Source: Candidatus Heimdallarchaeota archaeon | GTDB taxonomy: Archaea; Asgardarchaeota; Heimdallarchaeia; Heimdallarchaeales; Heimdallarchaeaceae | Direction: 5' to 3' | Assembly (NCBI GenBank): GCA_030668825.1 | Contig: DAOVET010000004.1 | Coordinates: 296 to 64,295, forward strand | Length of the DNA: 64,000 nt | Shown: positions 7,161-44,555 of the stretch, in pieces | Numbering within the stretch: the first letter of the stretch is position 1 | How the letters are laid out: the number at the start of each line of letters is the position of its first letter | The notes under the pieces: model-generated | The model's input: only the letters and a program-made list of their open reading frames with translations | Database searches by the model: none | Told to the model about the DNA's origin: nothing | Made by a program: the position numbers and the translations under genes

Positions 7161-7274
7161 GACGGTTCTATTCCTAAATTGTATATTTATTAGGTTTTCT
7201 AATATTCCTTCTGTTTCACAAATGATGAGGTTAGATGAAAAGTTTAACAATATGTAATAAAATAACAAAGTTGT

Positions 7275-15376: not shown

Positions 15377-15477
15377 CTTTATGTTCTGTTCCTTTTGAAA
15401 TGATTACTAGATTATTACTTATAAATTATTAGTTAATATTGGTAAGCTTTTTGATAAAAAATGAGGTTATGAGAAGC

Positions 15478-18400: not shown

Positions 18401-19062
18401 TTCAATACGGTATAAGGTCCATTCGTTGCACTACTCAAGATGGATGACATATCTGGTTTTCCATCGGAGATATTTGCATTGACTATGAATAAATCTAATT
18501 CATCACCGCCAATAGCATTTTCAATGATAAGATAAATTTTAGCACCAGAAAAAATAGCAGTTGGCCATGTTACATCAAAACTCTGAGCTATTCTTATAGT
18601 TGATGAATCAAGAATCTCATCTTTATTCTGAATTGTCTGTTGATAGTCGAAGTACTTGCTTGCAGAAATAGCTGTTATATTATATTGAAGCGAATCTGTG
18701 GTATAATCTGTAATACTAGAAATTGTGTAAGTATCTGAATAACTATTATCTGTATTAAGTGATACATTCACTCCTTGATTAACTTGCAGGTTATCTGAAA
18801 TAATAAAATCATCACCACTCCCATCGGAGTTTGTAATGGGTATGTATGAATATTTCAGTGATTGTTCTAGATTTGGACCTTCCAAACTATTTAGGAACCC
18901 ATTCTGAGAATGAATTAAGTCATCTTCAATGTTTTTGCTATGGTTATTAATTGAAAAAAATCCATTTGAAATACTATTTGATGTGAAAGGTAAAACGGGG
19001 ATGATTATAAAAGCTATGAAGGTTAATGATAAGAGCTTTCTAAATCTGAAATAATTTAACAA
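15478..19062 (-). CDS. Giant single-pass surface protein (receptor-like paralog 2)
   Basis: 1194 aa with the same architecture. Shares conserved ectodomain blocks with its neighbours ('GYWTTNTTHAIGYYGS', 'NFTLYSPDGEI', 'FDPSVYGSDTEGHWT...WTNGTAVGFY'). TM 'FYLFIIIGVLGAGAVIAPSILLL' + 'RRRKNREKR'. Cytoplasmic module ends in the identical 'YKIATVRF'. Confidence 0.8.
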   Translation of the reverse strand: MLNYFRFRKLLSLTFIAFIIIPVLPFTSNSISNGFFSINNHSKNIEDDLIHSQNGFLNSLEGPNLEQSLKYSYIPITNSDGSGDDFIISDNLQVNQGVNVSLNTDNSYSDTYTISSITDYTTDSLQYNITAISASKYFDYQQTIQNKDEILDSSTIRIAQSFDVTWPTAIFSGAKIYLIIENAIGGDELDLFIVNANISDGKPDMSSILSSATNGPYTVLNPINESTSGNTVYYDFNDITLSTGKYYVVANASSYDATDGDGFNWRGQQGSVYADSYTHDGSVWSSLVNKDYVLAPELTPAYANGTAMRFSDPAEVQLRDDGVDITSFNQVISGVGIHTITSNTSVDIEMNNPYTYSRSFMGQSFYTAINSSFYDYSISWSINWFTPLVDIYQYTNPIRLQSITIPNGWNNLSQIFLINDSIPIVSSVDINIHTLDLDVLLHGSNYYESDFVFYSTSRNYLYDSSISSETFNLGYWTTNTTHAIGYYGSDLDAVISVKEDLLSDIITGQLNFTLYSPDGEIIVMKTNLDSNISFVDTTSYSQIISSQSSPGVYSASTSFDPSVYGSDTEGHWTVTSEWTNGTAVGFYARTITVVKPTFAEFEWEEQVDSDIWINNPSTEINRISGESIRIRVNYYNISDPFFVGNGTPITAALVSYSTSWFDSGSINFNTSSYDTEILTNAPEGSSNVQLFANGQFLQNHTLQFPVKIVHIFRINMIQSPGQITYTDPTAISFELIDISNMSVQLYPEEITVILNAVNLTSEEFNLSLLDGIMEIELDTQSLGLEVGSHSIEVIVTKTNFFDEMGQNSASLSFPQLEIIPIKIAIVIEQDIDEMDTNTQSELKFSVMDTDHSTKVTGLTESEIELSVDIEGVEVWLDSESAGVYTVIVKILQPTVASLNVFVSISVSNYESIDNFRLASIQINIPTDPDSKMPFYLFIIIGVLGAGAVIAPSILLLRRRKNREKRAQKDIFTRTYNFYEGVLSITKLIIVHRATSLPVYEMDLGSEIDVDPSLISGFLSAVSSVGSEMRGERSGGVRRVQYKEFQVTASQSGFFTLYTFSESELNEEIEQKLTVISDWFDMMFPQIDADWDGSTEPFRLNLKGITEKIMKEIHLWIFYPFRVSPYKNKEIEEMSGIRKRMIDYIGKSDTITISRLFEDFDDVKLEQGLPIIFDLIETNILEPEFDAYKIATVRF

Positions 19063-19169
19063 TAGCTTACATCTCTGTTATTCTAACAGACTAATAATAT
19101 CTTCTAACTTAAATTATTTTTCTATTTTACAGTGATTTTCAGCTGAATTTATGTCTGTTAAGGGATTTT

Positions 19170-22100
19170 CTATCCTTTGAATGAAGAGAATTGATTTCGG
19201 AGCAGTATTCCTTTATTGACTAGTCTGAATATAGATGTAAGATTATCTTCCATTTCATAATCGCTGAATTTCTTAAGTAAGACACTGATAGATGTTTCTT
19301 CTTTTTTCTTGACAAATTCTGCAATTCTTTGATCATGTTTCTCCAGTTTTTTTATTTCACCTGATTTTTGTTTGTTAAATTTGAGAGGGAAGTAAATCCA
19401 TAGATAAAGAGATTCTGAAACCTTATCTTCAATGAGTTTCTTCTTAGAACCGAACACTTCTTTCTTTCCATCCCACACTTTTCCTTTGGTTTTGAAACTA
19501 TATTCAAACCACATTATCAAGTCAAACAACCTTACTTGAAATTCCTTTATGACTTCATTTGAAGAGAAGAGAAAAACTGTATAGGTTTCTGAACTAGCGC
19601 CTGTAACAACAAAATTCCTATATTCGAGTCGTTTAATTTCTCCAGTATCACTACCTCCAAGGGTTTTGCCCATGGTTTCGATAGCACCCAGAAAACCTAA
19701 TACAAGAGCGGTTTCTATTGCATGTTCACTTCCTATATCTAACTCAAATACAGGTAAGCTAGTTTCAGAATGAATAAATAATATTTTTCGCATAGAAAGA
19801 ACACTATCTAGCAACCCTACTACTTTAGCTTTACTCTGCACATCTACAATTGGAGCTTTGGATTTCCTGGATCTTGGAATTGCTATTACAGCTATTAAAA
19901 GAGTTATTAGGAGAATACCCCCAACAACTATGATAATTATGAGATAAGGGGGAAGTTGTTCAGTTGTTTTGACTTTAACTGTGTACTCAAAACTACTCTG
20001 TTCATCAACATATCCAGCTCTGAAGTTTGCTTTAGAAACAGTCACGTTTACTTTGTGTGTTCCTGAGGTTTGCATACTCATTGTTAATACAACCCAATCT
20101 CCATCGATAGTCTGCTCGTAAAAACCTTCAGCTATAAGTACATCATTGATATAGACACTGACATCATCAGGATAAATGACACTCTGCAATGGATCTGTCA
20201 TATTCAATAATTTGAACCTTAGAACTGCTTCATCAGTAGAATTAATCTCAATAGAATCCTGATCTACAACTAATGAGAACAAGTTGAAAACTTCTAGATT
20301 TAGTTGTATCTTCCTGGATTTGCACTGCGAGCTAGAAGCTTCCAAAGTTATTGTATGAAAACCCGCATCAATATCTATTGGAACTGTTGAATTGAAAAAT
20401 ATTCCATTCTCACTAAAATTACTAGAAAGACCCCAACTTGTAGTATAAGAAACAGTTGCATTTACTAATGCTTGCCCCATACTACCAAAGAAAGGTTCAC
20501 TTATAGAGTAGAAATCTGAGCGAGCTCTTAACGAATCACTGTTCATCCTTAAGATTGTATTTGAGGTAATATAGGTCCATACATCACTATTTGGAAGTGT
20601 TTCCCAAGAAGGATTGAAAACTATCTCAGTTTCAACAAATATTTTTTTAGCAAATAAACCAGCTTGAGTACCATTGGTCCAATAAACAAAAGCTGTCCAT
20701 TCACCGGTCATATCAGATCCATATACAGATGGATCAAAAGTTAAGTTTGAGGTGTATAATCCCGAACCACTAGAGAATATTCCATTCTTTGTATACGAAG
20801 AAATATCAATATACGAGAGGTTTGAGGGAAGAGCTATCTTTTGAGGTAAAATATTTCCATTTGGATCAAACAAAGTTACATTTATACTTCCAGTATCCTC
20901 ATTATTCTGAATATTAATCTCGAAATTCACTGTTGAACCTTCATTTCCATATGCATCGATAGTATCAGTAGTCCAGTATCCTAAAGAGAAGATATCTGCT
21001 GGTCCGGAATCATCTGAAAGAATCAGTTGTTGAACATAATTAAGACTCGTAGTTTCTAATCTAAATGTTCCTGCAGAAATATTAAATCCATAATTAACTA
21101 AATATCCATCAATCGTTTTCTGAGAGCTAAGGATATCAGTATCATTATAATAACAAGTAGAACTATCAGACCAGTCAGTAGGAGTGAATATTAAACTGGA
21201 TCTTTCCATACTAGGGTAGGGAGAATAATCAGCTTCTGAAGTTGACCATTGTAATGTCCATATATTAGAGTAAATACCAGATGTTGAATTGATTGCTGTA
21301 AAAGAAGTATCAACTGTCACATCTTTTGAAAAAGAATAAGAATTATTGAACACTAACTCCACTGAAGTATCACAGCTAAGCAAATGAAAACCAGTAGTAG
21401 AAATTGGAGATGTGGTTGTTAGAACATCTGAAGAATTATCTTGCAAAGCTATTTGGTTTAAATCACTAAAAGTCACTGCTGTTCCATTATCATAACTTGG
21501 AAGAAGTTGAGGAATAAAGGTATGATCTACCAATTTGAGGTTCCAAACACCAGAATTGTCCAAATAATACGTATCACTGTCTAGTGGTGCAGTACTATAA
21601 CTATACCAACGGAAATTCCATGGACTTCCAGCAACTGTCAGATTTGCAACTACAAAATATTTTCCGTTTTCTAAAACTATATCTGTGAAATCATAGAATG
21701 GGAGATTATCAATAGTACTAAAAGGAAAAGGATTAGCATTTGTATATGGACCATGAACATCACTGGAATAGATATAGGACATATTTGGTTTACCTGTTAG
21801 TTCATCAGCTTTTACAAGAAACAGCTCCAACTCTGTTGTACCAACATTCCCATCATCATCAAAAAAAAGTTTAGCACCTGAAAACACTGCATAATCCCAA
21901 TTTATATCGAAACTTTGAGCTATAGCCCATCTAGAAAAAGTATCACCTATCTCTATTGGTGTATCTCCTTCAATTTCTATTGGATACAAATCAGTTTTTG
22001 CAGTGATGCTTGAAATATTATAATTAAGTCTAAAAGGGTCATAACCTGTGATTGTATCAATCGTATAATTATCTTCAAATTGCTCACTTGTTACATTGTA

Positions 22101-22364
22101 AGAAAGGTTAAGAGTTTGATAGTCATTTACAGTTAGAACATCTTTCCCTGATAAACTACTTCCTACTCCAGATACATTAGTGATTGGAGTGTAAAGAAGT
22201 TCAGTTTCAGAAATAGAGATAGGATTATATTGTTCTAAAGTTATAATATCATTTTTCTCTTGAGAGTCTGATTTAGAAACAAGTTGTTCTTGATAAATTG
22301 ATAAACTAAGCACTATAAGAAACACAACAGAATAAATTTTGACTTTATGCGCTACTCTTTGCAT
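19170..22364 (-). CDS. Giant single-pass surface protein (receptor-like paralog 1)
   Basis: 1064 aa. Signal peptide; the ectodomain has the same conserved blocks ('GYWTTDTIDAYGNEGS', 'NVTLFDPNGNI', 'FDPSVYGSDMTGEWT...WTNGTQAGLF'). TM 'LIIIIVVGGILLITLLIAVIAI' + 'PRSRKSK'. Cytoplasmic module 'KILFIHSETSLPVFELDIGSE...LGFLGAIETMG...YTVFLFSSNE'. Confidence 0.8.
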   Translation of the reverse strand: MQRVAHKVKIYSVVFLIVLSLSIYQEQLVSKSDSQEKNDIITLEQYNPISISETELLYTPITNVSGVGSSLSGKDVLTVNDYQTLNLSYNVTSEQFEDNYTIDTITGYDPFRLNYNISSITAKTDLYPIEIEGDTPIEIGDTFSRWAIAQSFDINWDYAVFSGAKLFFDDDGNVGTTELELFLVKADELTGKPNMSYIYSSDVHGPYTNANPFPFSTIDNLPFYDFTDIVLENGKYFVVANLTVAGSPWNFRWYSYSTAPLDSDTYYLDNSGVWNLKLVDHTFIPQLLPSYDNGTAVTFSDLNQIALQDNSSDVLTTTSPISTTGFHLLSCDTSVELVFNNSYSFSKDVTVDTSFTAINSTSGIYSNIWTLQWSTSEADYSPYPSMERSSLIFTPTDWSDSSTCYYNDTDILSSQKTIDGYLVNYGFNISAGTFRLETTSLNYVQQLILSDDSGPADIFSLGYWTTDTIDAYGNEGSTVNFEINIQNNEDTGSINVTLFDPNGNILPQKIALPSNLSYIDISSYTKNGIFSSGSGLYTSNLTFDPSVYGSDMTGEWTAFVYWTNGTQAGLFAKKIFVETEIVFNPSWETLPNSDVWTYITSNTILRMNSDSLRARSDFYSISEPFFGSMGQALVNATVSYTTSWGLSSNFSENGIFFNSTVPIDIDAGFHTITLEASSSQCKSRKIQLNLEVFNLFSLVVDQDSIEINSTDEAVLRFKLLNMTDPLQSVIYPDDVSVYINDVLIAEGFYEQTIDGDWVVLTMSMQTSGTHKVNVTVSKANFRAGYVDEQSSFEYTVKVKTTEQLPPYLIIIIVVGGILLITLLIAVIAIPRSRKSKAPIVDVQSKAKVVGLLDSVLSMRKILFIHSETSLPVFELDIGSEHAIETALVLGFLGAIETMGKTLGGSDTGEIKRLEYRNFVVTGASSETYTVFLFSSNEVIKEFQVRLFDLIMWFEYSFKTKGKVWDGKKEVFGSKKKLIEDKVSESLYLWIYFPLKFNKQKSGEIKKLEKHDQRIAEFVKKKEETSISVLLKKFSDYEMEDNLTSIFRLVNKGILLRNQFSSFKG

Positions 22365-29721: not shown

Positions 29722-30972
29722 CTATCCCTTTAGTATCAACCTTATGTAGAGATCTATTTCTTCACCATTTTTGGTCAAACTTGTAACAAATAGAGTTTCA
29801 TGATTCCTAATATCCTGTTCTTTTAGCGTTAGATTGAGTTCAACTTCTTCTGGATCTTTCTTATCAATCAACCAGAAAGAAGGTTCAAATTCAGGATCAT
29901 AGCTATAACCTTTATTCTTAATTATTGAAAGAAGCATATTGAAAGTTGTAGTTTCTGGAATTGCTATTTCCTCGATTATGGTCGCAGCTGAACCGCACAA
30001 AGCACACTTTTTGTTAGGTGGCTTCTCTATGTAAAAGAATTTACCAACCAAACCATTGTAAATAACATATTCTTTGTTTACTGTTCCAAGTTTGATTCCT
30101 TTGACATGATGGAGTATCTTAATAGCTTCCTGTGATTGTAAAGAAGCTATAACTGCATTCATTGTAATTATTGTTGGATCATGCTGATCAACCATCTTTA
30201 CAGCTTCGTCAATTGAAAAAATACTTTTATCTGGAAAATGCTCTTTGACTAAATTGTTAGCATAATCTAGAACAACATTCATTTCTTCTATGACTGTAGT
30301 ATCTGGAGTTCTGTTATGTTTTGATTCAAAAGATAGCTGTCCCTTAAGCAAGCAGTGCGATCTTTTTCTTGGAATTCCAACCAAAGTACAAGCTGCTAAA
30401 GTTTCTCTTTCTCTCTCAATCTGAGGATCACATTGAAGACAAGCATTCTCTCCTGGAGAGTAAGTGTAAACATGACCGTAGTATGTAGCTGTTCCTCCAT
30501 CAATCATAGGTTTCTTGAAATGAACAGCTCTACGATTTAATTCAGCTCTTGCAGTAACTGAATCTAATCCAGAAATTATTAAATCAGCTGTTGCATATAC
30601 TTCAGGATCAATATCTTCAAGATTTGAGTGATGCCAGATATATTTGCTAAAAGGATTAATTTTCTTTAAAGCTGTAGCTGAAACTTTGGATTTAGGTTCC
30701 CCCTCATCTGCATCAGAAAATAAAATTTGTCTATTAAGATTAGCGTATTCAATAATGTCCAAATCTATCAAATGTAAAGTACCAACTCCTGCCATGGCCA
30801 GATTTTTAGCAACTTCGGTACCTAATCCTCCAATTCCTGCTATAACCACTTTTGAATCCTTCAAAGCTTTTTGATTCCACCCCGGTAATCTAAGTTGCCT
30901 ATCTAGACGTTTTCGTTCTTCTTCAGAGAATGTTTCATCAAAAAAGTTTGATTGTTGTGATTCGTTGCTCAT
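29722..30972 (-). CDS. Ubiquitin-activating E1-like enzyme (ThiF/MoeB/Uba-type adenylation domain with C-terminal extension)
   Basis: Nucleotide-binding 'VVIAGIGGLGTEVAKNLAMAGVGTLHLIDLDIIEYANLNRQ'. Zn-binding pairs 'CLQCDP' and 'CALCGS'. A ~100-aa C-terminal domain (possible ubiquitin-fold/E2-recruiting domain). Adjacent to the Ubl gene. Confidence 0.85.
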   Translation of the reverse strand: MSNESQQSNFFDETFSEEERKRLDRQLRLPGWNQKALKDSKVVIAGIGGLGTEVAKNLAMAGVGTLHLIDLDIIEYANLNRQILFSDADEGEPKSKVSATALKKINPFSKYIWHHSNLEDIDPEVYATADLIISGLDSVTARAELNRRAVHFKKPMIDGGTATYYGHVYTYSPGENACLQCDPQIERERETLAACTLVGIPRKRSHCLLKGQLSFESKHNRTPDTTVIEEMNVVLDYANNLVKEHFPDKSIFSIDEAVKMVDQHDPTIITMNAVIASLQSQEAIKILHHVKGIKLGTVNKEYVIYNGLVGKFFYIEKPPNKKCALCGSAATIIEEIAIPETTTFNMLLSIIKNKGYSYDPEFEPSFWLIDKKDPEEVELNLTLKEQDIRNHETLFVTSLTKNGEEIDLYIRLILKG

Positions 30973-31085
30973 TGTATACTCCTCAAGTATTACTCTGCTT
31001 CTAGTATGAAAAAATAATGATTGTTTGAAAAATAAATGGAGGGAGAAAGAGAAATTCTTTCTTAGATGTTGATTACTTCTTCCAT

Positions 31086-31445
31086 TTATCCAGCAGTTGA
31101 TACTGGGATAAGTAGAATGGTATCTCCATCTTCAACTCCATAATCATCTAAGACATCATCTGAATCACAAGTTCTTCCTGCATGAGACAGATGAAATTCA
31201 TCTGGAGGTAGTCCAAATATCTGACTAACAGTATATTTGATGTCACCAATTGGTGCATCAATGGCAACAACAAGTTTCTCTTGTTTTGGACTTGGTCCAA
31301 TAGTGCTTTGAAAATAAACACTAATTTTCTTACTTCCAGGAGTCTTTGACTTTGTAGGAGTCTTTGAGATAATTTCTTCTTCTTCGACTTCCTCTTCTTC
31401 TTCATCAAAGGATAATTCTTCAAATTCTTCGCTCATAATAATCAT
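31086..31445 (-). CDS. Ubiquitin-like beta-grasp modifier protein with an acidic N-terminal extension
   Basis: The C-terminal 78 aa align with ubiquitin: 'LPPDEFHLSHAGRTCDSDDVLDDYGVEDGDTILLI' vs ubiquitin '[35 protein letters not shown]'. The protein terminates in '...VSTAG' (single terminal Gly). The N-terminal 40 aa are poly-Glu/low-complexity. A likely start is the second ATG, which has an 'aagga' Shine-Dalgarno. Confidence 0.75.
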   Translation of the reverse strand: MIIMSEEFEELSFDEEEEEVEEEEIISKTPTKSKTPGSKKISVYFQSTIGPSPKQEKLVVAIDAPIGDIKYTVSQIFGLPPDEFHLSHAGRTCDSDDVLDDYGVEDGDTILLIPVSTAG

Positions 31446-31688
31446 TCCTTGTTAATTACAATTTATGCATATTGCATTGGACTGTTAAAAAACTATGCTT
31501 TTCGGTATAAAAAGCATTTTATTTAGGTTGTTGAAGAAAGCAACAGTAATATAAATAAGGAAAAAGAGGATATATATCTTGATTGATAACTAGAGGAATT
31601 CAGAACTGTTAAAAGACAGACTTGGAGTTTTAGAATTTCTTGAAAACAGATCCTTAGAAGAAAGGCAAAGTATGGATTTGACTTACAA

Positions 31689-32156
31689 ATGGCAAACAAA
31701 AAAAAGAAAAGTAAGATTTCTTCCAAAATTCCAAAGCAAAAATATCCCTTTGATTCTAAAATCCCCAAGGAAAAAATTCCAAAACAAAGATTAGATGCTA
31801 GTGAACTAATTCCTCCGAAAAAACAAAAAAGGGGTAAAGAGAAGAAGGAAGAAGTGATTCCTAAAAGAGAAATTTTCAAAGATATTGAAAGCATGGAATC
31901 AAGAGCTATGGAGAAACAGAAGAAAGAAAAAAAGGAAGAAACGCTCCCTTCAAGAGATAAGGATAAATTCTCTGAAATCGAAAGTATGGAATCTAGACCA
32001 CTTCCAAAGGAAGAGAAAAAGGAGAAAAAGGAGAGAGAATCTCCAGCTGCTTCCCAAATTGAAGAAGTTGTGCAAGAGAAAACTCCAAAGCAAAAAGTAC
32101 CAACACAAAAATATCCTAGTCAAACAAAGTTACCAAAGCAAAAGAAACCAAAGTAA
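31689..32156 (+). CDS. Lys/Glu/Pro-rich repetitive (intrinsically disordered) protein
   Basis: 155 aa with 'KIPKQK'-type short repeats and a longer repeat ('DIESMESRAMEKQKKEKKEE' / 'EIESMESRPLPKEEKKEKKE'). The two DNA copies differ mainly at synonymous positions (att/atc, agc/agt, tca/tct), which argues for real coding on this strand. The minus-strand ORF 31523-31894 is its low-complexity shadow. Confidence 0.5.
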   Translation: MANKKKKSKISSKIPKQKYPFDSKIPKEKIPKQRLDASELIPPKKQKRGKEKKEEVIPKREIFKDIESMESRAMEKQKKEKKEETLPSRDKDKFSEIESMESRPLPKEEKKEKKERESPAASQIEEVVQEKTPKQKVPTQKYPSQTKLPKQKKPK

Positions 32157-32200
32157 AATGAAAATAATCTTCTCTATACCTAATTAATTTCTAGAACAAT

Positions 32201-32794
32201 TTATACAAACAGCATCAATAGGGCTGAATAGAAATACACCCCACCGAAAATCACAAGAAAGAGATTTTCAAGATAAAATACTGAAGTCAAGATATAAGTT
32301 GCAGGAATTATGAACATAAGTAAGAATCCAAAGAATTTTGGAGAAATACCTTTTTCGCTTGTTCCCTTGAGTCTGATGAAAGGGTATCGAATAAATGTTC
32401 TAAAAATCATGAAGTTACTAACTATATAATAAGGTAATAAAACAAAATCTACAGCATTGATATAGAAAATATAGTCAAGACCTTCTGTAGATATTCCAGT
32501 TGAAACTATAAAAGGCTCGTAAAGCAAAAATAACTTCTGAGTTAAAATAATTAAAACAGGAATTAGAGGAACCATTAGAACAAAAAACACTTCGTTGAAT
32601 GTTGCTTTGTGTTTCAAATAAAAGAAACTTCTAAAAATTATAAATAAAGAGAGGAAAACAAAAATTGCAGCAAAAATGTAAACTCTTCCGAGGAAATTGT
32701 TATCTTCTATGAAATAATAAATTGAAACACCAACTAATGTTAGTGATAGTAGAAATGCTGCAGATAGTTGTTTCCAAGTGGCCATGAATAACAC
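32201..32794 (-). CDS. Polytopic membrane protein, hypothetical
   Basis: 197 aa, 5-6 predicted TM helices. Lies between the RING and Ubl/E1 genes. Confidence 0.5.
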   Translation of the reverse strand: MLFMATWKQLSAAFLLSLTLVGVSIYYFIEDNNFLGRVYIFAAIFVFLSLFIIFRSFFYLKHKATFNEVFFVLMVPLIPVLIILTQKLFLLYEPFIVSTGISTEGLDYIFYINAVDFVLLPYYIVSNFMIFRTFIRYPFIRLKGTSEKGISPKFFGFLLMFIIPATYILTSVFYLENLFLVIFGGVYFYSALLMLFV

Positions 32795-32859
32795 CTTTCC
32801 TTCTATTTTCCAACTTGTTTATATTTATTCAGTTATTAAACAATTGGCTACTCGAATTA

Positions 32860-33963
32860 TTATAGCTTCTCAATCACTTTTTCAATATAGAGCTTTATAT
32901 TGATTCTATATTTTGGATTGTTTACATATCTGGTAGAAATAATTTGATTACATCTAGCACAGAGTCTTGATGTCTTAAACCAACTCATAAATTCGTCTTC
33001 ATGTGCAGGATATCGACAGTGGGGGCATAAAATGATTTTTCTGCGGTCTTTCTTATCAAAATCCATATAACATATTATACATTGCATCTCTTCTTTCTTG
33101 GGTGTACCAATTGGAAAGATTTTCTTAGAAACCGTTGTTATTTTGGATTTTTTCTTTAGAGTAGTAGAGCGTGTTGTTTTTACTTCTATCCCAGGAGCAA
33201 TTCTTGCATTAGAATACCTAGAAGTTTTACTAGTAGATGATGTAGAAGCTGTTGGTCTTCTTGACCTAGTGGAAACAGATCTTTGGTTACTTCGAGTTGT
33301 TGAAGCTGTTGTTCTGCTTCTACTGGTTGATGATGTGGATCTGGATGAAGTAACCTGAGCTTGTTGGTTAGATCTCACTGCAAATGCAATTATGAAGTAT
33401 CTAAAGATAAAAATGAAGTATAAAATAACAAAAATGAAACTTACAAAATCAATTTGCCAATTGATAAAGAATCCAACTAATAAAATTGCAATATATGTTG
33501 TATGTATCAAAAGGGGTATTTTTCTTCCTCTTCGTACTTTTCTGTTTACAGCAATAGCAGGCCATTTCTCATAGTAAAAGTTTCGAAAATAAAGAGAAAG
33601 AACAATTACAGGAAAAATTAAAGATATAGATATTAGATTAAAAGGAGAATATATTGAGCTCCCACCTGATAAACCGATATCTATTCTGAAAATTTCATAA
33701 GCAGCGGCTATGGGAGAGATATAATTTCCCATTAACATAATGCAAAATGGAAGTAGTAGGAATTGAGTGCTCGCGAGAATAGTTTTATGTTTTTTATAAT
33801 GTCTTCTTTCAAGAAAGAATCTCAGAGCAACAACAACATACAGGGTTATAAAAAATATAGTGAGTGTTTTCGGCAAATCTTTTTGAATTGCCATATATAG
33901 TACTCCAACGGTTAATCCAACAATTCCAATTGCTAGATAGGTTTTGATGTTGTTTAGTTCCAA
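32860..33963 (-). CDS. Membrane-anchored RING-like zinc-finger protein (candidate E3 ligase)
   Basis: An N-terminal ~190 aa with ~5 TM helices, then an ~80-aa Ser/Thr/Arg-rich low-complexity linker ('SSRSTSSTSRSRTTASTTRSNQRSVSTRSRRPTASTSSTSKTSR'), then a C-terminal Cys/His cluster 'CIICYMDF...(14)...LCPHCRYPAHEDEF...(10)...CARCNQII' resembling a small RING/RING-variant finger. Confidence 0.65.
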   Translation of the reverse strand: MELNNIKTYLAIGIVGLTVGVLYMAIQKDLPKTLTIFFITLYVVVALRFFLERRHYKKHKTILASTQFLLLPFCIMLMGNYISPIAAAYEIFRIDIGLSGGSSIYSPFNLISISLIFPVIVLSLYFRNFYYEKWPAIAVNRKVRRGRKIPLLIHTTYIAILLVGFFINWQIDFVSFIFVILYFIFIFRYFIIAFAVRSNQQAQVTSSRSTSSTSRSRTTASTTRSNQRSVSTRSRRPTASTSSTSKTSRYSNARIAPGIEVKTTRSTTLKKKSKITTVSKKIFPIGTPKKEEMQCIICYMDFDKKDRRKIILCPHCRYPAHEDEFMSWFKTSRLCARCNQIISTRYVNNPKYRINIKLYIEKVIEKL

Positions 33964-33984
33964 TTATAACCCAACTTTCATTTT

Positions 33985-34704
33985 TTATGAATCATTTTCA
34001 TATTTGTTTTTCATGAAGAGATTTATTGATTCATAACCTGCTTCAACGCTCAAACCATGTACTTCACTCGATAGTTCATAGTATGATTCTTTATCTTTGT
34101 GAATTCTGAAAACTCCAACTCCAAAATTCTTAGGAGATATCATTAAAGGATCTAAAACAACAGCAATAGATTTATTCCAAAAGGTTTGATAACGGAGATG
34201 TGTGCCAAAGTCATCACCACTTAAAAAGGGAGTATAGCTAGGGTGTGAATGCGCCCATCCGATTATAAAATGTTCATCGTCCTTCTTGTGAAATATCTCT
34301 GTGAAAATCTGTTGATCAACAATTTCTACACTGACTGCATCACCTTGATCTACTGGCCAATAATCTTCAACAAAAATCTGTTCTAGAGGAGTGTCTTCAT
34401 GTTTAATTCTTCCTGTTAATAAACCAATAATTTCCACCCAATCTTTCTTTGGGATGTTTTCGTTTGCATAAGTTAAAGCATGTTTAGCTAACTTTAGATA
34501 AGCTTTGGGGGAGATAACTATTTCATTTCTCACTTTGATTTGTAAATCATCTTCAGTGATTGTATCCTCACTTATTTCTTGTTTCACATCTACTTTTTCC
34601 TTAATAATATCATCAACTTCATGAAGTCCTAGGGCTTTCTCTAGCGCTTCTATTTTTTTTAGGAGTTTTTCGTATTGTTCGGGAAATTCAGTTTCATTTT
34701 CCAT
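33985..34704 (-). CDS. JAB1/MPN/Mov34 (JAMM, MPN+) metalloisopeptidase, Rpn11-like deubiquitinase candidate
   Basis: JAMM motif 'HSHPSYTPFLSGDD' (H-x-H-x7-S-x2-D) with the upstream conserved Glu ('VEIIGLLTGR'). There is an N-terminal ~70-aa coiled-coil extension. Confidence 0.85.
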   Translation of the reverse strand: MENETEFPEQYEKLLKKIEALEKALGLHEVDDIIKEKVDVKQEISEDTITEDDLQIKVRNEIVISPKAYLKLAKHALTYANENIPKKDWVEIIGLLTGRIKHEDTPLEQIFVEDYWPVDQGDAVSVEIVDQQIFTEIFHKKDDEHFIIGWAHSHPSYTPFLSGDDFGTHLRYQTFWNKSIAVVLDPLMISPKNFGVGVFRIHKDKESYYELSSEVHGLSVEAGYESINLFMKNKYENDS

Positions 34705-34737
34705 TATAAGCTCACCTTCTTCATATTTTATTCAATT

Positions 34738-35268
34738 CTACCAGTAGGATTTTGCATATTTCTTACTAATAGAACTTGCCTTTTTAATGAATTTCTTCTT
34801 ATCATTTAAGAATTCTAGAGCTGCTTCTTTATTGAATACATCTTTGGGATTTACATAAGCTCCATCAATATTAAACATTGCAAGGATAGAATAAATAACA
34901 GTCGTGATATTCTTAGCAGGAGACCATCCATCATGTTTTCCTACTAATTCATTATCAACTAAAGCTAAGCAAATATTTCTTTTATTTGGATATTCTTTAG
35001 GATTTGGCCAGAAATTGGGATGCCAGATAGGTGTATGTAATCTTACATATGGTGGTTTATATGGATAGTTTGATCCAAAGAGAATTTCAAGTTTATACTT
35101 ACCACCAGCATAAGGTGTCTTCTCAGGTCCAACAAAACCTATAGCTAGATGTCCCATAGATTTCTTCTTACTTGGAAATGCTTTTACTTGAGCTAAAATA
35201 CCTTCTTTATGAAGTTTTCTTAGCGCATCAAAATCTTTGATAACTCGTTGTTTTCTAATTTTTGTCAC
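34738..35268 (-). CDS. Ubiquitin-conjugating enzyme E2 (UBC fold)
   Basis: 'YPYKPPYVRLHTPIWHPNFWPNPK...RNICLALV...W' carries the HPN motif and the catalytic Cys context of UBC enzymes. 176 aa. Confidence 0.8.
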   Translation of the reverse strand: MTKIRKQRVIKDFDALRKLHKEGILAQVKAFPSKKKSMGHLAIGFVGPEKTPYAGGKYKLEILFGSNYPYKPPYVRLHTPIWHPNFWPNPKEYPNKRNICLALVDNELVGKHDGWSPAKNITTVIYSILAMFNIDGAYVNPKDVFNKEAALEFLNDKKKFIKKASSISKKYAKSYW

Positions 35269-35450: not shown

Positions 35451-35849
35451 TTACTCAGACAATAATTCTGTGAATTTATCAGAATATTCTGTCTTAATCT
35501 GACCTTCGGTTTTTTCCATTTCAGCTCTAACTTTCTGGAATTCTAGTTTCTTCTTTTCAATTTTCATTAGAATGCTTTGAATTTTAGATTTATTCTCTGC
35601 TATAGTAACTTCTTTTTTCTTAAATTTGGCTTCTTCCTTGAGAACTTTGTCTCCTTTTCCACTCTCTTTCAGTTTATTTATCTTCATTAATCGTTCTTGT
35701 AACTCTTGATTGACTTCTGCATTCTTTTTCTTAAAATAAACTTTCTTTCCATCTAGCTCATCTAGATCCTCTTTAACATCAAAAAATTTCTCTTTAGTAC
35801 CATAAAATTTAGCTAATAGCTTGTAATACTTAATCTCTCTTTCACTCAT
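35451..35849 (-). CDS. Coiled-coil hypothetical protein
   Basis: 132 aa, K/E-rich with heptad periodicity. No motif. Confidence 0.45.
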   Translation of the reverse strand: MSEREIKYYKLLAKFYGTKEKFFDVKEDLDELDGKKVYFKKKNAEVNQELQERLMKINKLKESGKGDKVLKEEAKFKKKEVTIAENKSKIQSILMKIEKKKLEFQKVRAEMEKTEGQIKTEYSDKFTELLSE

Positions 35850-35927: not shown

Positions 35928-36803
35928 TTATTGATGTTCTTTCAAACTCCACATATTATCGAAAAACTCCTTAGATGGATGAATTAAATCTTTGTTAATC
36001 CTGATATCATGAAGAACACAATCACAATAAGGATATCCTTCTACTATTGTATGTTTCATGGTTAAAATGAAGTTCTCATTATTATTATTGTAACCCTGAA
36101 AATCCCCATAACATGCAGCTAGATATTTCAGTTCAATATCTGTTAAGTTAGTTATAGCATCTTTCCACATGCATGTATCTTTCCTCTGAGGAAACTTACC
36201 ATCCTCAATCACTCCTTGAACAATTACCCAGCCTATACTTGGAGAATCATCATCCTTTGGAATTCTAGCATTTCTAAACTCTACAAGAGTTTCATATTTG
36301 CTCCTTCCTGAGGATATTGATTTGACATAAGCTTCTATATATCCTTTGAATAAGTCTATCGCTATATTCCTTTCAATAATCTCTGTTAAGATTTTTACAT
36401 TATAGTATCTGTGATAGAGAAATGAATTGATGTAATTTCTATTAAGGACATTAATTTTATCTTGAATCCAGTCTTTATTACTACTGAAATCAAGTAATTG
36501 GAGATAATAATCAAAACAAGCACTCATTAATTCTGGAAAAACTTTCAAGTGAATAAAATCCTTACTTAACTCTGCAAAATCTATATTCTGCTCTTTTGAA
36601 AAAGAAGTTTTGAGAAACTGATTGAATTGATTTGTTAATCTAGTAACAAAACTATTCAAGATTTCTGGTTTCTCTTTCTTTATGTATCCAAGCAGATAAT
36701 TCAATCTTTTCAGTACAGTTCTTTTAGCAAATTCTAGTGGCTGAAGTTCCTGTAATTTTTCTAAATCACTAATATCATACTGACCTGTTCTAAAAACTTC
36801 CAT
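35928..36803 (-). CDS. Hypothetical protein, tandem paralog A (Cys/His motif family)
   Basis: 291 aa, similar in length and pattern to the adjacent ORF: 'IELKYLAACYGDF...ILTMKHTIVEGYPYCDCVLHD' vs 'PDIAYLSSCYIADVPEF...LRRTQTLHHAKFCDELYWNDDVHPD'. Confidence 0.55.
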   Translation of the reverse strand: MEVFRTGQYDISDLEKLQELQPLEFAKRTVLKRLNYLLGYIKKEKPEILNSFVTRLTNQFNQFLKTSFSKEQNIDFAELSKDFIHLKVFPELMSACFDYYLQLLDFSSNKDWIQDKINVLNRNYINSFLYHRYYNVKILTEIIERNIAIDLFKGYIEAYVKSISSGRSKYETLVEFRNARIPKDDDSPSIGWVIVQGVIEDGKFPQRKDTCMWKDAITNLTDIELKYLAACYGDFQGYNNNNENFILTMKHTIVEGYPYCDCVLHDIRINKDLIHPSKEFFDNMWSLKEHQ

Positions 36804-36806
36804 ACT

Positions 36807-37679
36807 TCATTCCTCCAGATCTTTCCCAATATTTTCTGTAAAATCTAAAGATGGCTGCTCTGCATCTGGATGGACGTCATCATTCCAATAAAGCTCATCA
36901 CAGAATTTAGCATGATGTAGAGTTTGAGTTCTTCGTAGGTGGATTGTTCTACCTTCATTAAATTCTGGAACATCTGCAATATAGCAGGAACTCAAGTAAG
37001 CGATATCTGGGTCATTGAATTCTTTCAGAGCTTCCGGTGTTAAGCAACTATCAAAACGGTAGATCACTTTATGATCATCAAATATACAAAATGCAAAATC
37101 TGCAAGACCCATTTTGCACCATATTTCTATTGAACTCTTATTGGAATCCAGAATCGTAACTGTTTTGGGATCTGTTGGTTTTTCTGTTTTATCTTTAGAC
37201 CTCATTTCTTTTATTAAATAAGGGACTATTTGTTTATAGATTCTTGTTCCTTCCTCTTTTCCGTAGGTATCAGCTAAAGCTTTTACCAGATAATATGAGG
37301 TTCTTTCGAGAGCCTTGATGCGATCGAAATGAAATAATTCTATTTCTCCTTGATCTGATGTATAGTTATTAGGTAACTTGATTGTCTTACATACGAAAAG
37401 AAAGACCGATTTCTCTAAGTCAGGGAAATTTGGTATCAATTCCAACCTTTCTCTAATTATTTTCCAATTAAAAGCATTATAATTATAATCATAATCACCT
37501 ACAGCTTCACTAAACTTTTCTTTCAATTTTGAAATATAGAAACTCAGATCTTCTGGTAGAATCAATCTGAAAAACTTTGTAACAGAATCTACTCGTTCAA
37601 GTCTAGCTTTTATAATATCTTCAGGCTTAGATTTTCCTTTCTTAGTTAAACTAAAACACTTATGGTTTTCAATTTGCAT
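36807..37679 (-). CDS. Hypothetical protein, tandem paralog B (Cys/His motif family)
   Basis: 290 aa, separated from paralog A by 3 nt. Conserved C/H positions suggest a metal site. Confidence 0.55.
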   Translation of the reverse strand: MQIENHKCFSLTKKGKSKPEDIIKARLERVDSVTKFFRLILPEDLSFYISKLKEKFSEAVGDYDYNYNAFNWKIIRERLELIPNFPDLEKSVFLFVCKTIKLPNNYTSDQGEIELFHFDRIKALERTSYYLVKALADTYGKEEGTRIYKQIVPYLIKEMRSKDKTEKPTDPKTVTILDSNKSSIEIWCKMGLADFAFCIFDDHKVIYRFDSCLTPEALKEFNDPDIAYLSSCYIADVPEFNEGRTIHLRRTQTLHHAKFCDELYWNDDVHPDAEQPSLDFTENIGKDLEE

Positions 37680-41595: not shown

Positions 41596-42504
41596 TTAAG
41601 TTTTCTTTCTCTTAAACCAAGGAATGAGCATCGGTACTTTCTTTTTATATATCTTATATGTTGGATATTTCTTCAACATTTTCTTCTCAATTAGTGGAAT
41701 GCTAATTACTACAAATAGTAGAGTTACAACTAATGGTCCTACGATTGTCCACCAGTAGCTAAAATCCGCTGCAAGTGAAAAGAAATATATTCCCCACCAA
41801 AAGCCAACTTCTCCCAAATAGTTAGGATGTCTAGAAGTAGCCCACAAACCCCTAATAAGCAATTCTCCTTCCTTTTTCTTATCATTAAAAATCTTCAACT
41901 GCTCATCTGCTACTGCTTCTAAAATGATTGCTCCAATACAGATCATTAAACCTAACCAGAAGAAGATGTTCATGGTTTCTAGAGTTGGAGAAATTATAGC
42001 AGGATAGAGAGATAAACATCCAGCATACACCACTAATGTTGGCATAAGGTGTAATCCAGTCAAATTAATAAACCAGAAAAGTTTAGGATAATTTTTTCTA
42101 TAATTGGCATATCTCCAGTCTTCATGATGGAGTCCTTTCCAACCTCTAGCCCAATTATATGTTAGTCTTACTCCCCAAACTCCAACAACAACCATAATCC
42201 AGATATGGGTAGATCTGAAACCAATTACAGGAGCTATAGAGATAATCCAATAGAAAATTATGATAATAGGGATAACACTCCAATAAGGATCATATAAACT
42301 TGTATTTTTGAATATTGTACTAATTATGTAAATAACAAGAGTTGCTGCTACATCAGCAATCAGAGTTGCCAATAAAGGATGTACTAAGCCGTTTATTCCA
42401 AAAAGAACACCAACAGCTGCACCCAATGCAACAACATATGATATTATACATATTACGAATGAGGTTAAACGACTAAATTCGAGCTGAGAGGTACTCATAT
42501 TCAT
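41596..42504 (-). CDS. ICMT/DUF1295-clan integral membrane methyltransferase-like protein (isoprenylcysteine carboxyl methyltransferase-like)
   Basis: C-terminal 'LIRGLWATSRHPNYLGEVGFWWGIYFF...IEKKMLKKYPTYKIYKKKVPMLIPW' matches the 'RHPxYxGE...EExL...Y..Y...VP..IP' AdoMet-binding region of the ICMT / phospholipid methyltransferase / DUF1295 clan. ~8 TM helices. Confidence 0.7.
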   Translation of the reverse strand: MNMSTSQLEFSRLTSFVICIISYVVALGAAVGVLFGINGLVHPLLATLIADVAATLVIYIISTIFKNTSLYDPYWSVIPIIIIFYWIISIAPVIGFRSTHIWIMVVVGVWGVRLTYNWARGWKGLHHEDWRYANYRKNYPKLFWFINLTGLHLMPTLVVYAGCLSLYPAIISPTLETMNIFFWLGLMICIGAIILEAVADEQLKIFNDKKKEGELLIRGLWATSRHPNYLGEVGFWWGIYFFSLAADFSYWWTIVGPLVVTLLFVVISIPLIEKKMLKKYPTYKIYKKKVPMLIPWFKRKKT

Positions 42505-42602
42505 GGGTGATATTGGAACAAAATCACTTCATTAAATGCTTTTCTTCTTAGTAGATTGTAGAAATCAAGAATTAGTCTTCTCAATTGTTGATGATTAGTT
42601 TC

Positions 42603-43562
42603 TTAAACCATATCTATAGAAGGTTCTAATATAGCCTTCACATCTTCCGTTTTGTTAGGCCACTTTTTATAAACAAAATAGATAATTAAGCATCCAACAG
42701 CGCATGGAACTATTCCAATCCCTGAAGCAGTCATCATTAACAAGCGGATAATAATATCAGTCATTGTAGTTTCAGGGAAATAGAACACAAATGTTAGGAA
42801 AGTGATGAAAGCATCTATGAGATAATGGATTATGATAACTGAAATCAGACTCTTTGTCTTCGAGTACAGATAAGCCAAGAGTATACCTATTGCTGTAGCA
42901 TAAATTACCTGGAATAATGTAGAATACAAAAAACGGAGAATTAACTCTGTTTCATAACCCCATAAGAAGAATAAAGAAATCAGATTAATCAAATGGAACA
43001 AACCAAACATAACCCCATTAATGATGATTGTCTTTCTCTGGGAATATTTTTTCAACAATAAAGCAAAAACAACGCCTCGAAATGCCACTTCCTCCCAAAT
43101 ACCAGGGGTTAGAGCATAATAAATGTTTAAAGGTATTGTTTTTTCTACTAATAAACGTCCCCAAAAGATTTGGAAACCCCCTCTAGACTTTGCTTCCAAC
43201 CAACTTGTAAAGACAGCAAAACACAGGATAATCCCACCTATCAAGATGCCTAAACCTATTGTTTTGATAACAGGTTTAAACTTGTTAAGATTAATACTAT
43301 TAAGATATTCTTTGAAGGATCCCTTACTGTCAGGTAATTTTAGAAGAGGTACAATAACTAACCATAAAACTACCATAAGTGCGAAATTAATTAGCCAAAA
43401 GTTCACAATATTATTGACAAACCAGTTAGCAACATTTGAATTATTCATTGCTAGTATGTTTAGTACAATACCTGGAACCAACAAGAAAATAACATAAAGA
43501 ACTAATACTAGAGTTATTGACCACCAAGGTCTAATTGAAGCAGGTTTTTCTTCATTCATCAT
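42603..43562 (-). CDS. CPBP-family intramembrane glutamic metalloprotease (CAAX protease/Rce1-type, Abi domain), copy 1
   Basis: Motif 1 'GIWEEVAFRG', motif 2 'FGLFHL', motif 3 'IIHYLIDAF' (EExxxR, FxxxH, HxxxD); all are intact. Confidence 0.8.
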   Translation of the reverse strand: MMNEEKPASIRPWWSITLVLVLYVIFLLVPGIVLNILAMNNSNVANWFVNNIVNFWLINFALMVVLWLVIVPLLKLPDSKGSFKEYLNSINLNKFKPVIKTIGLGILIGGIILCFAVFTSWLEAKSRGGFQIFWGRLLVEKTIPLNIYYALTPGIWEEVAFRGVVFALLLKKYSQRKTIIINGVMFGLFHLINLISLFFLWGYETELILRFLYSTLFQVIYATAIGILLAYLYSKTKSLISVIIIHYLIDAFITFLTFVFYFPETTMTDIIIRLLMMTASGIGIVPCAVGCLIIYFVYKKWPNKTEDVKAILEPSIDMV

Positions 43563-43577
43563 TTTTTCACCTTTAAT

Positions 43578-44555
43578 TCACATCTCATTAACAACTATTT
43601 TAGCAATTTCTGGTTTAACCAATGTAGCTTCTTTAGGTATCAGTTTATAGACTCCCCAAATGAGTAAAGAGTTTAGTATTGCTGGAAGAACCCCAATCCC
43701 TATTAGTGCATGAGTTGTGAGAAAAGTGTAGAAATTAGGTACTGACCCAGGAAGGAACATTATAACGAACGCATCTATCAAGTAATGACAGATTATACCT
43801 GGAAGCAAGCTATTGGTCTTTACACACATATATGCAATGAATATACCTAAAGCACTGGCAAATAAGACTTGAAATAACACAGGAACAACGGTTTCTAAAG
43901 TATACACTCCAAGTACCAACATATTGACTAAGTGAAAGAATCCAAATACCAACCCATCAATAATTATAGCTCTAGTTCTCGAGTAGACTTTCAAGAGCAA
44001 AACAAGAATTACACCTCTAAAAGCAACTTCTTCCCAAAAACCAGGGATGAGTGAATAATAAAAAAGATAACCAGATTCTTGAAAATATTGTTTGGCATTG
44101 ACTGTGAAATCACCACCGTTGATAGTTGCTATTGTAGAAGAAAGAGAGATACAGCCTATTGTAATAGCAGCCGTCATAAGCCCTAGACTAATGGTAAGAA
44201 ATATTGGTTTAGCTTTATTAAGTTTAATAACTCTGAAAAAATGCTTTAAAGATTTGGACTTCTGTGGCAATTTAAAAACTAATGGAACAAGAAGAAACCA
44301 GAACAATCCAAGTAAAGTAAAAATAACAAGAAAAATAGCCACAACTGGGGCTTCTAGAACTGCCATAATAAGATTACCTCCTACTAGAATCGCAGCATAT
44401 ATAATTAGTATTAGTAAGATCATAATCCATATATTACTTTTTAATGGTGGTTTAATTGCTGTTTGTGTAATATGGGGTGCATCTGGTTCAAAGATGCTTT
44501 GTGCTTCAACTACTTCTTCTGGCTTAGCTGATTCATTTTGTTCCATAAATCCCAC
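43578..44555 (-). CDS. CPBP-family intramembrane metalloprotease, copy 2 (tandem paralog)
   Basis: 'PGFWEEVAFRG', 'FGFFHLVN', 'CHYLIDAF'; same three motifs. 15-nt spacing from copy 1. Confidence 0.8.
   Translation of the reverse strand: MGFMEQNESAKPEEVVEAQSIFEPDAPHITQTAIKPPLKSNIWIMILLILIIYAAILVGGNLIMAVLEAPVVAIFLVIFTLLGLFWFLLVPLVFKLPQKSKSLKHFFRVIKLNKAKPIFLTISLGLMTAAITIGCISLSSTIATINGGDFTVNAKQYFQESGYLFYYSLIPGFWEEVAFRGVILVLLLKVYSRTRAIIIDGLVFGFFHLVNMLVLGVYTLETVVPVLFQVLFASALGIFIAYMCVKTNSLLPGIICHYLIDAFVIMFLPGSVPNFYTFLTTHALIGIGVLPAILNSLLIWGVYKLIPKEATLVKPEIAKIVVNEM

Follow-up and report, generated by a model that had tools for sequence, protein, structure and literature searches.

Is a ubiquitin-like conjugation system with a membrane-embedded ligase a peculiarity of a single archaeal genome or a shared property of the Asgard archaea? 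The question is raised by a locus at positions 29722-35268 of a 64,000-nucleotide stretch (hereafter the window) of contig DAOVET010000004.1, from an assembly of Candidatus Heimdallarchaeota archaeon (GCA_030668825.1). It encodes a ubiquitin-like modifier (Ubl), an activating enzyme (E1), a conjugating enzyme (E2), a JAMM-type metalloprotease and a single candidate ligase (E3), here called TM-RING, in which six transmembrane (TM) helices precede a C-terminal RING-like zinc finger. Two further genes encode a second membrane protein (TM2) and a Lys/Glu-rich protein (KE). These parts, their motifs and their conserved linkage are established directly. Judging from sequence, the locus is probably the form that a core Asgard system of ubiquitin-like conjugation, acting at the cell membrane, takes in Heimdallarchaeia. 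A preliminary description of this DNA had placed the E2, JAMM, RING finger, membrane proteins, Ubl and E1 on the minus strand between these positions and had called the locus a complete eukaryote-type Ubl/E1/E2/RING/JAMM set. Both claims hold: all catalytic motifs are present and are conserved in the 63-78 orthologues on which they were scored, drawn from 80 species-level loci.

We scanned one genome per species for relatives of TM-RING, found them at 164 places, and annotated the best 80 of these 164 loci by phmmer with the window proteins as queries. The 80 loci come from archaeal metagenome-assembled genomes (MAGs), Asgard wherever a lineage is given, including HeimAB125, Loki_b32 and one closed chromosome. 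The JAMM gene lies immediately upstream of TM-RING in 78 of them; the two exceptions are a locus at a contig end and one with no recovered open reading frame (ORF). The common order, Ubl-E1-E2-JAMM-TM-RING on a single strand, occurs in 46 loci, and the window order, E2-JAMM-TM-RING-TM2-(KE, opposite strand)-Ubl-E1, in 16 loci and several truncated ones. With this order repeated in 16 loci and the core set kept in 78/80, the arrangement is not a product of chance. The preliminary description had seen a membrane E3 as what sets the locus apart; this did not bear out, since the same TM-RING gene occurs in MAGs labelled Heimdall-, Prometh/Loki-, Thor-, Hermod-, Hod-, Odin- and Borrarchaeum. TM-RING is the fifth conserved gene of the Asgard operon, the rule in Asgard archaea and not a peculiarity of the window locus. 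In the comparison of gene order that had been suggested earlier, the core set is shared and the window order is rearranged relative to the common Asgard one. Specific to the window's Heimdall clade are this rearranged order, the RING-less TM2 and the opposite-strand KE; within that clade the window locus is a typical member, and its interest lies in the family-wide features.

The E2 contains the HPN motif and a catalytic Cys100, which aligns to the catalytic Cys of its best solved relatives, UBE2L3 (the best, E = 3e-15), UBE2T, UBE2D and Rad6. The spacing HPN-x14-C is found in 69/69 orthologues and is specific to this family: relative to UBE2L3, 6-7 residues (FWPNPKEYPNKRN) are inserted between HPN and the catalytic Cys (residues 83-100, window 34960-35020), and the insertion is present in all 69 operon E2s examined. 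The JAMM protein carries the motif H152-x-H-x7-S-x2-D, conserved as HxHx7SxxD in 78/78 orthologues, behind an acidic, helical N-terminal extension of ~60 aa. Its best solved relative is the Caldiarchaeum Rpn11 (6fju, E = 5e-11), in an alignment that spans the catalytic motif. The E1 combines a ThiF adenylation domain bearing GxGGxG with two CxxC zinc motifs and a Cys195 in the catalytic loop. Its best solved relatives are the SUMO E1 UBA2 (E = 5e-32), UBA1 and NAE rather than MoeB/ThiF. The Cys in the 'PGCT' loop of UBA2, which we take to be the catalytic Cys of UBA2, is aligned with Cys195. Among E1 orthologues, GxGGxG and both CxxC motifs are kept in 63/63 and the 'AACT' loop in 61/63. A weak second stretch of the alignment (13.5 bits) points toward the UBA2 C-terminal region, and a C-terminal UBL domain is tabulated at 95% Phyre2 confidence for the orthologous E1 of HeimAB125, OLS32357 (PMC5654768, Supplementary Table 2).

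The modifier has an N-terminal tail of ~40 aa, acidic and then Lys-rich, ahead of its beta-grasp domain. Its best single-domain solved relatives are archaeal entries described as 'ubiquitin-like protein' (6fj7, 6fnn and 2mqj, E about 2-4e-6). The protein ends in ...LLIPVSTAG, and the motif 'IP[AV]STAG' is present in 70/70 operon Ubls. In place of a di-glycine, all 70 orthologues have Ala-Gly, so that ubiquitin shares only the last Gly; this -AG rather than -GG end had been missed in the preliminary description. Fifty of the Ubls stop at the Gly and 20 extend 1-3 residues beyond it, a pattern expected if the Gly is the processed, conjugated end. The operon JAMM would be the obvious candidate for trimming the extended forms, by analogy with the JAMM-type Ubl processing of Caldiarchaeum (PMC5654768, PMC6043591). 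With -AG at the end of the modifier, conjugates would escape di-Gly remnant proteomics, and searches for conjugates in Asgard cultures must not depend on the K-GG remnant. Further Ubl-domain genes were observed beside the operon in loci of the common order (L007, 1906-3111; L035, 9999-10781; L084, 815-2557; and many others). They include a second free Ubl ending [ST][IV]AG and a membrane or zinc-ribbon protein whose C-terminal Ubl has no AG end; Borrarchaeum has a HerA-like ATPase fused to a Ubl ending SRAG.

Hydropathy and loop charges delineate six TM helices in the membrane domain of TM-RING. The K/R-rich loops 52-60 and 127-148 fall on the same side as the basic C-terminal half, which indicates an N-in/C-in topology with the zinc finger predicted to face the cytoplasm. 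The full-length AlphaFold2 (AF2) model, built with 64 homologues, comprises six long helices together with a pair of beta-hairpins, one on the extracytoplasmic and the other on the cytoplasmic side, mostly with predicted local distance difference test (pLDDT) values of 81-95. Residues 208-278 are disordered (pLDDT <50) and the C-terminal domain is folded (pLDDT 84-93). Across 79 members the linker measures 76-147 aa, with a median composition of 37% S+T, 23% R+K and 2% D+E. A RING-like protein and a polytopic membrane protein had been listed previously as separate genes. Both features are real, and they belong to one polypeptide; the second membrane protein of the locus is TM2. The earlier view that the only candidate E3 at the locus is an integral membrane protein stands, with its RING predicted to be cytoplasmic. 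Residues 1-205 had no Pfam match, and Foldseek searches of the full-length model against the PDB gave no match at E<1e-3 and no convincing membrane-domain fold; homology to the membrane domains of Hrd1, Pex2/10/12, MARCH or Dsc/Tul1 was not found. When 1.84 billion representative proteins were searched exhaustively by HMMER with the membrane-domain profile, only 94 clusters came up, nearly all of 340-465 aa and matching the Asgard family in their length profile; as far as sequence tells, the family appears to be small and without a broad eukaryotic counterpart.

The zinc finger is defined by the motif C295-x2-C298-x14-C313-P-x-C316-x4-H321-x2-E324-x10-C335-x-R-C338, which is present in 80/80 distinct members and provides seven Cys/His ligands, all invariant, with an equally invariant Glu in the sixth ligand position. 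If the pattern is taken as a cross-brace, Cys4 would make up site 2, and site 1 would combine Cys2-His with the invariant Glu. Searched against the PDB, the finger profile matched the RNF24 RING (E = 1.9e-3) and, more weakly, those of ARK2C/RNF165, EL5, RNF38, listerin and RNF4. A profile word-search with the finger yielded nothing beyond short Asgard fragments. The AF2 model of the domain alone (pLDDT 89.2) agreed with the PDB profile matches: almost all of its top 50 Foldseek PDB matches are RING or U-box domains (probability up to 1.00, E 0.013-0.3), including RNF24 (root-mean-square deviation 1.6 A over 49 columns), RNF165 (TM-score, TMt, 0.77) and EL5 (TMt 0.71). On the strength of these profile matches and of the Foldseek results for the domain model, we accept a RING/U-box fold for the modelled finger despite Pfam scores below cut-off. 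At least 90% of members keep Ile296, all keep Trp328, and the RNF24 alignment puts this Trp in register. The Ile after Cys1 and the Trp four residues after ligand 6 correspond to E2-contact positions in the c-Cbl and RING-H2 structures.

Separately, two related Heimdall-type genomes encode an extra protein between TM2 and KE (L008, 9933-10514; L025, 2719-3408). In this protein a zinc ribbon at the N-terminus is followed by two TM helices and, at the C-terminus, a RING-H2 domain scoring above cut-off (zf-RING_2, 32.6 bits). It is a second membrane-anchored RING in the operon that the window does not have. Its occurrence in some relatives reinforces the membrane theme.

Turning to the genes particular to the window's clade, BLASTP detected no similarity between TM2 and TM-RING. 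Profile comparison by hhalign, however, aligned TM2 with the TM-RING membrane domain over 166 columns (probability 95.4%, E = 1.7e-8). The conserved juxtamembrane motifs are brought together in this alignment, Y-L-K-H-K-A-T with Y-K-K-H-K-T and R-Y-P-F-I-R with K-W-P-A-I-A. The exhaustive search with the TM-domain profile likewise recovered TM2-like proteins of 192-199 aa (E 2e-6 to 8e-4), and also a RING-less 239-aa form with a Ser/Arg-rich tail. Both results identify TM2 as a duplicate of the ligase membrane domain that has lost the linker and the RING. TM2 directly follows TM-RING in 22 loci and is nearby on the opposite strand in one more; it most likely pairs with the ligase membrane domain as a non-catalytic partner.

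The K/E-rich protein was correctly described before as embedded in the locus; KE is encoded on the plus strand. In 16 orthologous loci no other frame is open throughout, the pairwise ratios of nonsynonymous to synonymous substitution rates (dN/dS) are 0.09-0.25, and all MAG gene callers predict it identically. On these comparisons of coding sequence, KE is a genuine gene under purifying selection. A minus-strand L/F-rich ORF at 31523-31894 was considered as the real gene in place of KE and rejected, because the plus-strand KE frame alone is fully open in the 16 loci and shows these low dN/dS values. The window KE carries conserved KIPKQK(I/Y)P and FSEIESMESR motifs and is internally shortened compared with its orthologues of 211-267 aa, which share KIPKQK(I/Y)P repeats, two FSEIESMESR-like motifs and a PKQKKPK end. 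The protein consists of 26% Lys and has no match in Pfam, NCBIfam or PADLOC; at a guess, it may serve for regulation or as a dedicated substrate.

From these parts we infer catalysis by the RING, its topology and membrane-proximal substrates, and propose the following model. E1 would adenylate the terminal Gly of the Ubl and form a thioester on Cys195, and its putative C-terminal ubiquitin-fold domain would hand the Ubl to Cys100 of the E2. The membrane-anchored RING would bind the charged E2~Ubl through the Ile296 and Trp328 positions, with the flexible basic linker as a tether, and promote transfer of the Ubl to lysines on proteins located at the cytoplasmic membrane face or close to it. Membrane proteins, and possibly the Lys-bearing linker of the ligase itself, are candidate targets. 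JAMM would remove the 1-3 residue C-terminal extensions of the Ubl and reverse conjugation. In the window clade, the membrane domain was duplicated to give TM2, with loss of the linker and RING.

The alternative that survives best is that TM-RING is not a catalytic E3. Its finger would instead have a structural or oligomerization role, or act as a receptor for the Ubl, and would anchor the system or its products to the membrane, while E1 and E2 conjugate directly. We regard this as unlikely, yet several observations speak for it and weigh against a membrane-anchored ligase. Pfam RING models score below their gathering cut-offs in every member; zf-RING_2 gives 18.6 bits for the full-length window protein and 22.2 bits for the domain alone (cut-off 27.3), and 13/24 members match it at E<=0.1, all below cut-off. 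Weak matches to zf_UBZ, a ubiquitin-binding zinc finger, occur in 16/24 members. The finger has only seven Cys/His ligands, with Glu replacing the canonical sixth, so that its binding of two zinc ions is presumptive. The last Cys is followed by N, D or S, not by the basic 'linchpin' residue typical of strongly activating RINGs. Furthermore, the nearest match in both sequence and structure is the C-terminal zinc finger of IFT144/WDR19, the best PDB match of the finger profile (8bda_I, E = 2.8e-5) and among the top Foldseek matches (8bbg_A, probability 1.00, 75 columns, 23% identity); the GATOR2 RINGs also rank high. Both the IFT144/WDR19 finger and the GATOR2 RINGs are generally regarded as structural. 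In the Caldiarchaeum system, moreover, the E2 alone supports auto-modification (PMC5654768).

Beyond the finger itself, the TM-RING topology is based solely on hydropathy, the positive-inside rule and the AF2 model, the E2 insertion sits beside the active-site Cys, and the partnership of TM2 and any role of KE are guesses from gene linkage. Against a non-catalytic finger, on the other hand, neither the window operon nor most of the 80 loci contain another E3 candidate, the two classical E2-contact positions are invariant or nearly so, and the RING-H2 ligases RNF24, RNF165/ARK2C, RNF38 and EL5 are also among the top matches. As the sole E3-like gene at the window locus, syntenic with JAMM, E2, E1 and Ubl in 78/80 loci, TM-RING is favored as the E3, and catalysis by its finger is the most likely reading of the motifs and profiles.

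With respect to IFT144/WDR19, and the related IFT121 and GATOR2 fingers, the likeness to the window finger lies in a common CP-x-C-[KR]-[YF]-P-A...C-x-x-C-N signature, and Pfam Zf_2nd_IFT121 gives weak matches in 7/24 members. The IFT144 finger lacks the His and Glu ligands and ends a WD40/TPR protein of protocoatomer type rather than a membrane domain, and IFT144 is not known to act with an E2. As an observation in its own right, the resemblance may point to an evolutionary connection of the Asgard finger with the RING-like fingers associated with protocoatomers.

A role in anti-viral defense, after the manner of bacterial Ubl conjugation of the Bil-like or CBASS Cap2/Cap3-like kind, is highly improbable. 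Bacterial Ubl/E1/E2/JAB operons do act in phage defense, and the E1 adenylation domain matches PADLOC 'E1-E2' (Cap2) models (E = 1.5e-18) and NCBIfam cap2_3. However, the PADLOC matches span the generic ThiF domain only; E2, Ubl, TM-RING, TM2 and KE have no match in PADLOC 2023, which may not include Bil models, and its JAB match is marginal (E about 3e-3). The E2 is of the eukaryote-type UQ_con family (92 bits), the operon is found, with its synteny kept, nearly throughout the Asgard lineages, unlike patchy defense islands, and its neighbors in the window are housekeeping or eukaryotic-signature genes.

Weakest is the reading of the Ubl as a sulfur carrier of the MoaD/ThiS/SAMP type, with the ThiF protein as its adenylyltransferase and the other genes as unrelated neighbors: although E1 does score against MoeB/ThiF NCBIfam models (E down to 1e-37, far below their cut-offs), we rejected this reading as effectively refuted by missing genes and ubiquitin-type top matches, given that no MoaE, ThiG, ThiS or MoaD gene lies in the window and its sole rhodanese gene is >20 kb distant, that the Ubl matches the ubiquitin family and archaeal ubiquitin-like structures and not ThiS/MoaD, that the top PDB matches of E1 are UBA2, UBA1 and NAE with an aligned catalytic Cys, and that E2, JAMM and RING co-occur with the Ubl in 46 complete loci. 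The preliminary description, too, had argued against a sulfur carrier, naming associated MoaE/ThiG genes beforehand as what would speak for one, and the window is free of MoaE, ThiG and ThiS.

The conjugation system proposed here can be set beside several known ones. The operon of Caldiarchaeum subterraneum, which encodes Ub, E1, E2 and the small RING finger protein srfp with an adjacent Rpn11, has been reconstituted (PMC5654768; Rpn11 in PMC6043591). It shares with the window locus the same five functional classes, the operon organization and an E2 with HPN and Cys; the window E1 may also share its C-terminal ubiquitin-fold domain. Its Rpn11 is the nearest solved relative of the window JAMM, and archaeal ubiquitin-like entries are the nearest single-domain relatives of the Ubl. 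The two differ in that the window E3 is a 367-aa six-TM protein with a long disordered linker instead of a small soluble RING protein, and that its Ubl ends in -AG and is mostly already mature, versus -GG followed by a 9-residue propeptide. Furthermore, the window Ubl has an acidic/basic N-terminal tail, the window E2 has the HPN-x14-Cys insertion, and the window clade has another gene order and two extra genes, TM2 and KE.

A Helarchaeial cascade linked to the endosomal sorting complexes known as ESCRT, with E1, E2 and a soluble RING E3 acting on UEV-Vps23, has also been reconstituted (bioRxiv 10.1101/2023.07.25.550441; synteny in PMC9192718). It belongs to the same phylum and has the same E1-E2-RING logic and a proposed link to membrane biology. 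Its (pro-)ubiquitin is of the di-Gly kind, its RING E3 is soluble and carries an N-terminal loop, and it clusters with ESCRT genes, whereas the window locus has an -AG Ubl, a membrane-embedded RING and no ESCRT gene nearby. The window-type operon and the Helarchaeial cascade appear to be parallel systems.

Eukaryotic TM RING-H2 ligases (RNF24 and plant ATL/EL5; more loosely Hrd1 and Pex2/10/12) resemble TM-RING in that one or more membrane segments precede a cytosolic RING that recruits a soluble E2, and the window finger has the RINGs of RNF24 and EL5 among its best matches in sequence and structure. They differ in showing no detectable similarity in the membrane domain (Pfam, Foldseek PDB) and in ligands, C3H2C3 versus C4-H-(E)-C2 in the window finger. 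In the Pex RING complex, an active subunit is paired with paralogous subunits; a complex of TM-RING and TM2, if formed, would parallel this arrangement. The SAMP/UbaA and MoaD/ThiS-MoeB/ThiF systems likewise activate a beta-grasp modifier at its C-terminal Gly by a ThiF-family enzyme. They have neither an E2 nor a RING, their modifiers usually end in -GG, and they are tied to sulfur transfer, in contrast to the window locus with E2, RING and JAMM as conserved partners and no adjacent sulfur-transfer genes.

The ubiquitin operons of Asgard archaea and Caldiarchaeum were already known, and the HeimAB125 orthologue of the E1 had been tabulated. A full-text literature search, with subscription papers outside its scope and earlier annotation therefore possible, found no description of a membrane-embedded RING as the operon E3, of the -AG end, of the RING-less paralogue or of KE. 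A 2026 review of membrane-associated Cdc48/ubiquitin pathways credits archaea with a 'primitive precursor' of the cascade and mentions no membrane E3 (PMC13328587). Asgard ubiquitin operons are central to arguments on the origin of eukaryotic protein sorting and degradation, in which the debate to date has focused on soluble small RING proteins and ESCRT links. Provided that the operon most widespread among Asgard archaea has an integral membrane protein as its conserved E3, membrane-localized ubiquitin-like tagging, which in eukaryotes underlies endoplasmic-reticulum-associated degradation (ERAD), endosomal sorting and peroxisomal receptor recycling, predates eukaryotes. A bolder scenario, which we hold to be doubtful, is that the ancestral Asgard system was a membrane machine, in which the six-TM RING, joined in Heimdallarchaeia by its RING-less paralogue, formed oligomers that tagged and perhaps extracted or sorted membrane proteins as a forerunner of ERAD- and Pex-type RING complexes. 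The C4-H-E-C2 finger would then be the source of the C-terminal RING-like fingers of IFT-A and GATOR2, and the -AG conjugates of the system would have been missed by di-Gly remnant proteomics.

Features of the locus are listed in Table 1. Transcription on the minus strand runs in the order E2, JAMM, TM-RING, TM2, Ubl, E1, with gaps of 33, 21 and 65 nt between the E2, JAMM, TM-RING and TM2 genes. KE converges on TM2 and diverges from the Ubl gene, and its position on the opposite strand divides the locus into at least three transcription units. Orthologues and MAG gene calls point to ATG 31436 and ATG 32785 as the probable true starts of the Ubl and TM2, respectively.

Table 1. Genes and domains of the ubiquitin-like conjugation locus, in window coordinates.
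Feature	Coordinates	Strand	Evidence
E2 ubiquitin-conjugating enzyme, 176 aa	34738..35268	-	Pfam UQ_con 92.3 bits (cut-off 27)
JAMM/MPN+ metalloprotease, Rpn11-like, 239 aa	33985..34704	-	PF01398 46.5 bits
TM-RING, 367 aa, six-TM protein with C-terminal RING-like finger	32860..33963	-	
TM-RING membrane domain, aa 1-205	33349..33963	-	Hydropathy, loop charges, AF2 model
TM-RING disordered Ser/Thr/Arg/Lys-rich linker, about aa 206-283	33115..33348	-	AF2 pLDDT, composition
TM-RING RING-type zinc finger, predicted cytoplasmic, aa 284-367	32860..33114 (including stop codon)	-	Ligand motif, profiles, model
TM2, 194-197 aa, RING-less paralogue of TM-RING membrane domain	32201..32794	-	hhalign
KE, 155 aa, Lys/Glu/Pro-rich, disorder-prone by composition	31689..32156	+	Open frame, dN/dS
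Ubl, ubiquitin-like modifier, 116-119 aa	31086..31445	-	PF00240 27.1 bits (cut-off 25.4)
E1 activating enzyme, 416 aa	29722..30972	-	Pfam ThiF E = 1e-55

The window has a G+C content of ~32%, and an Rfam scan of it found no RNA families. For the window proteins, the nearest relatives carry the label Candidatus Heimdallarchaeota or Heimdallarchaeaceae, and identical copies of the E2 protein are encoded in two NCBI assemblies, GCA_021399335.1 and GCA_022096915.1. Genes for a gelsolin-repeat protein and a cold-shock protein flank the locus. Directly upstream of the E2 gene is one for a 132-aa coiled-coil K/E-rich protein (35451-35849, minus strand), and beyond it lie two ATC_hydrolase-like paralogues (290 and 291 aa; 35928-37679, minus strand) with Pfam scores below or near cut-off. 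In many loci of the Heimdall type, the coiled-coil and ATC_hydrolase-like genes again lie next to the ubiquitin genes, in some cases forming arrays of 3-4 paralogues.

Several genes elsewhere in the window were also recorded. Adjacent to one another at 41596-44555 (minus strand) are three membrane-enzyme genes, one for a DUF1295 protein weakly similar to ICMT/PEMT and the other two for paralogous Rce1-like CAAX proteases, a trio that resembles steps of eukaryotic prenyl-CAAX processing. A Ras/Roc-family small GTPase with an N-terminal extension of ~160 aa is encoded at 6597-7622 (minus strand), and a 309-aa protein at 9231-10160 (plus strand) begins with an AN1-type zinc finger, a domain frequently associated with ubiquitin/p97 pathways in eukaryotes. 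Three successive very large ORFs at 11744-22364 (minus strand; 1210, 1194 and 1064 aa) have no Pfam match at E<=1e-3 and may be paralogues. Finally, the gene for the thiamine pyrophosphate-binding subunit of a pyruvate/2-oxoacid:ferredoxin oxidoreductase (POR) at 59824-61908 (minus strand) is split by an intein with a LAGLIDADG homing-endonuclease domain and is followed by the POR alpha and gamma subunit genes.

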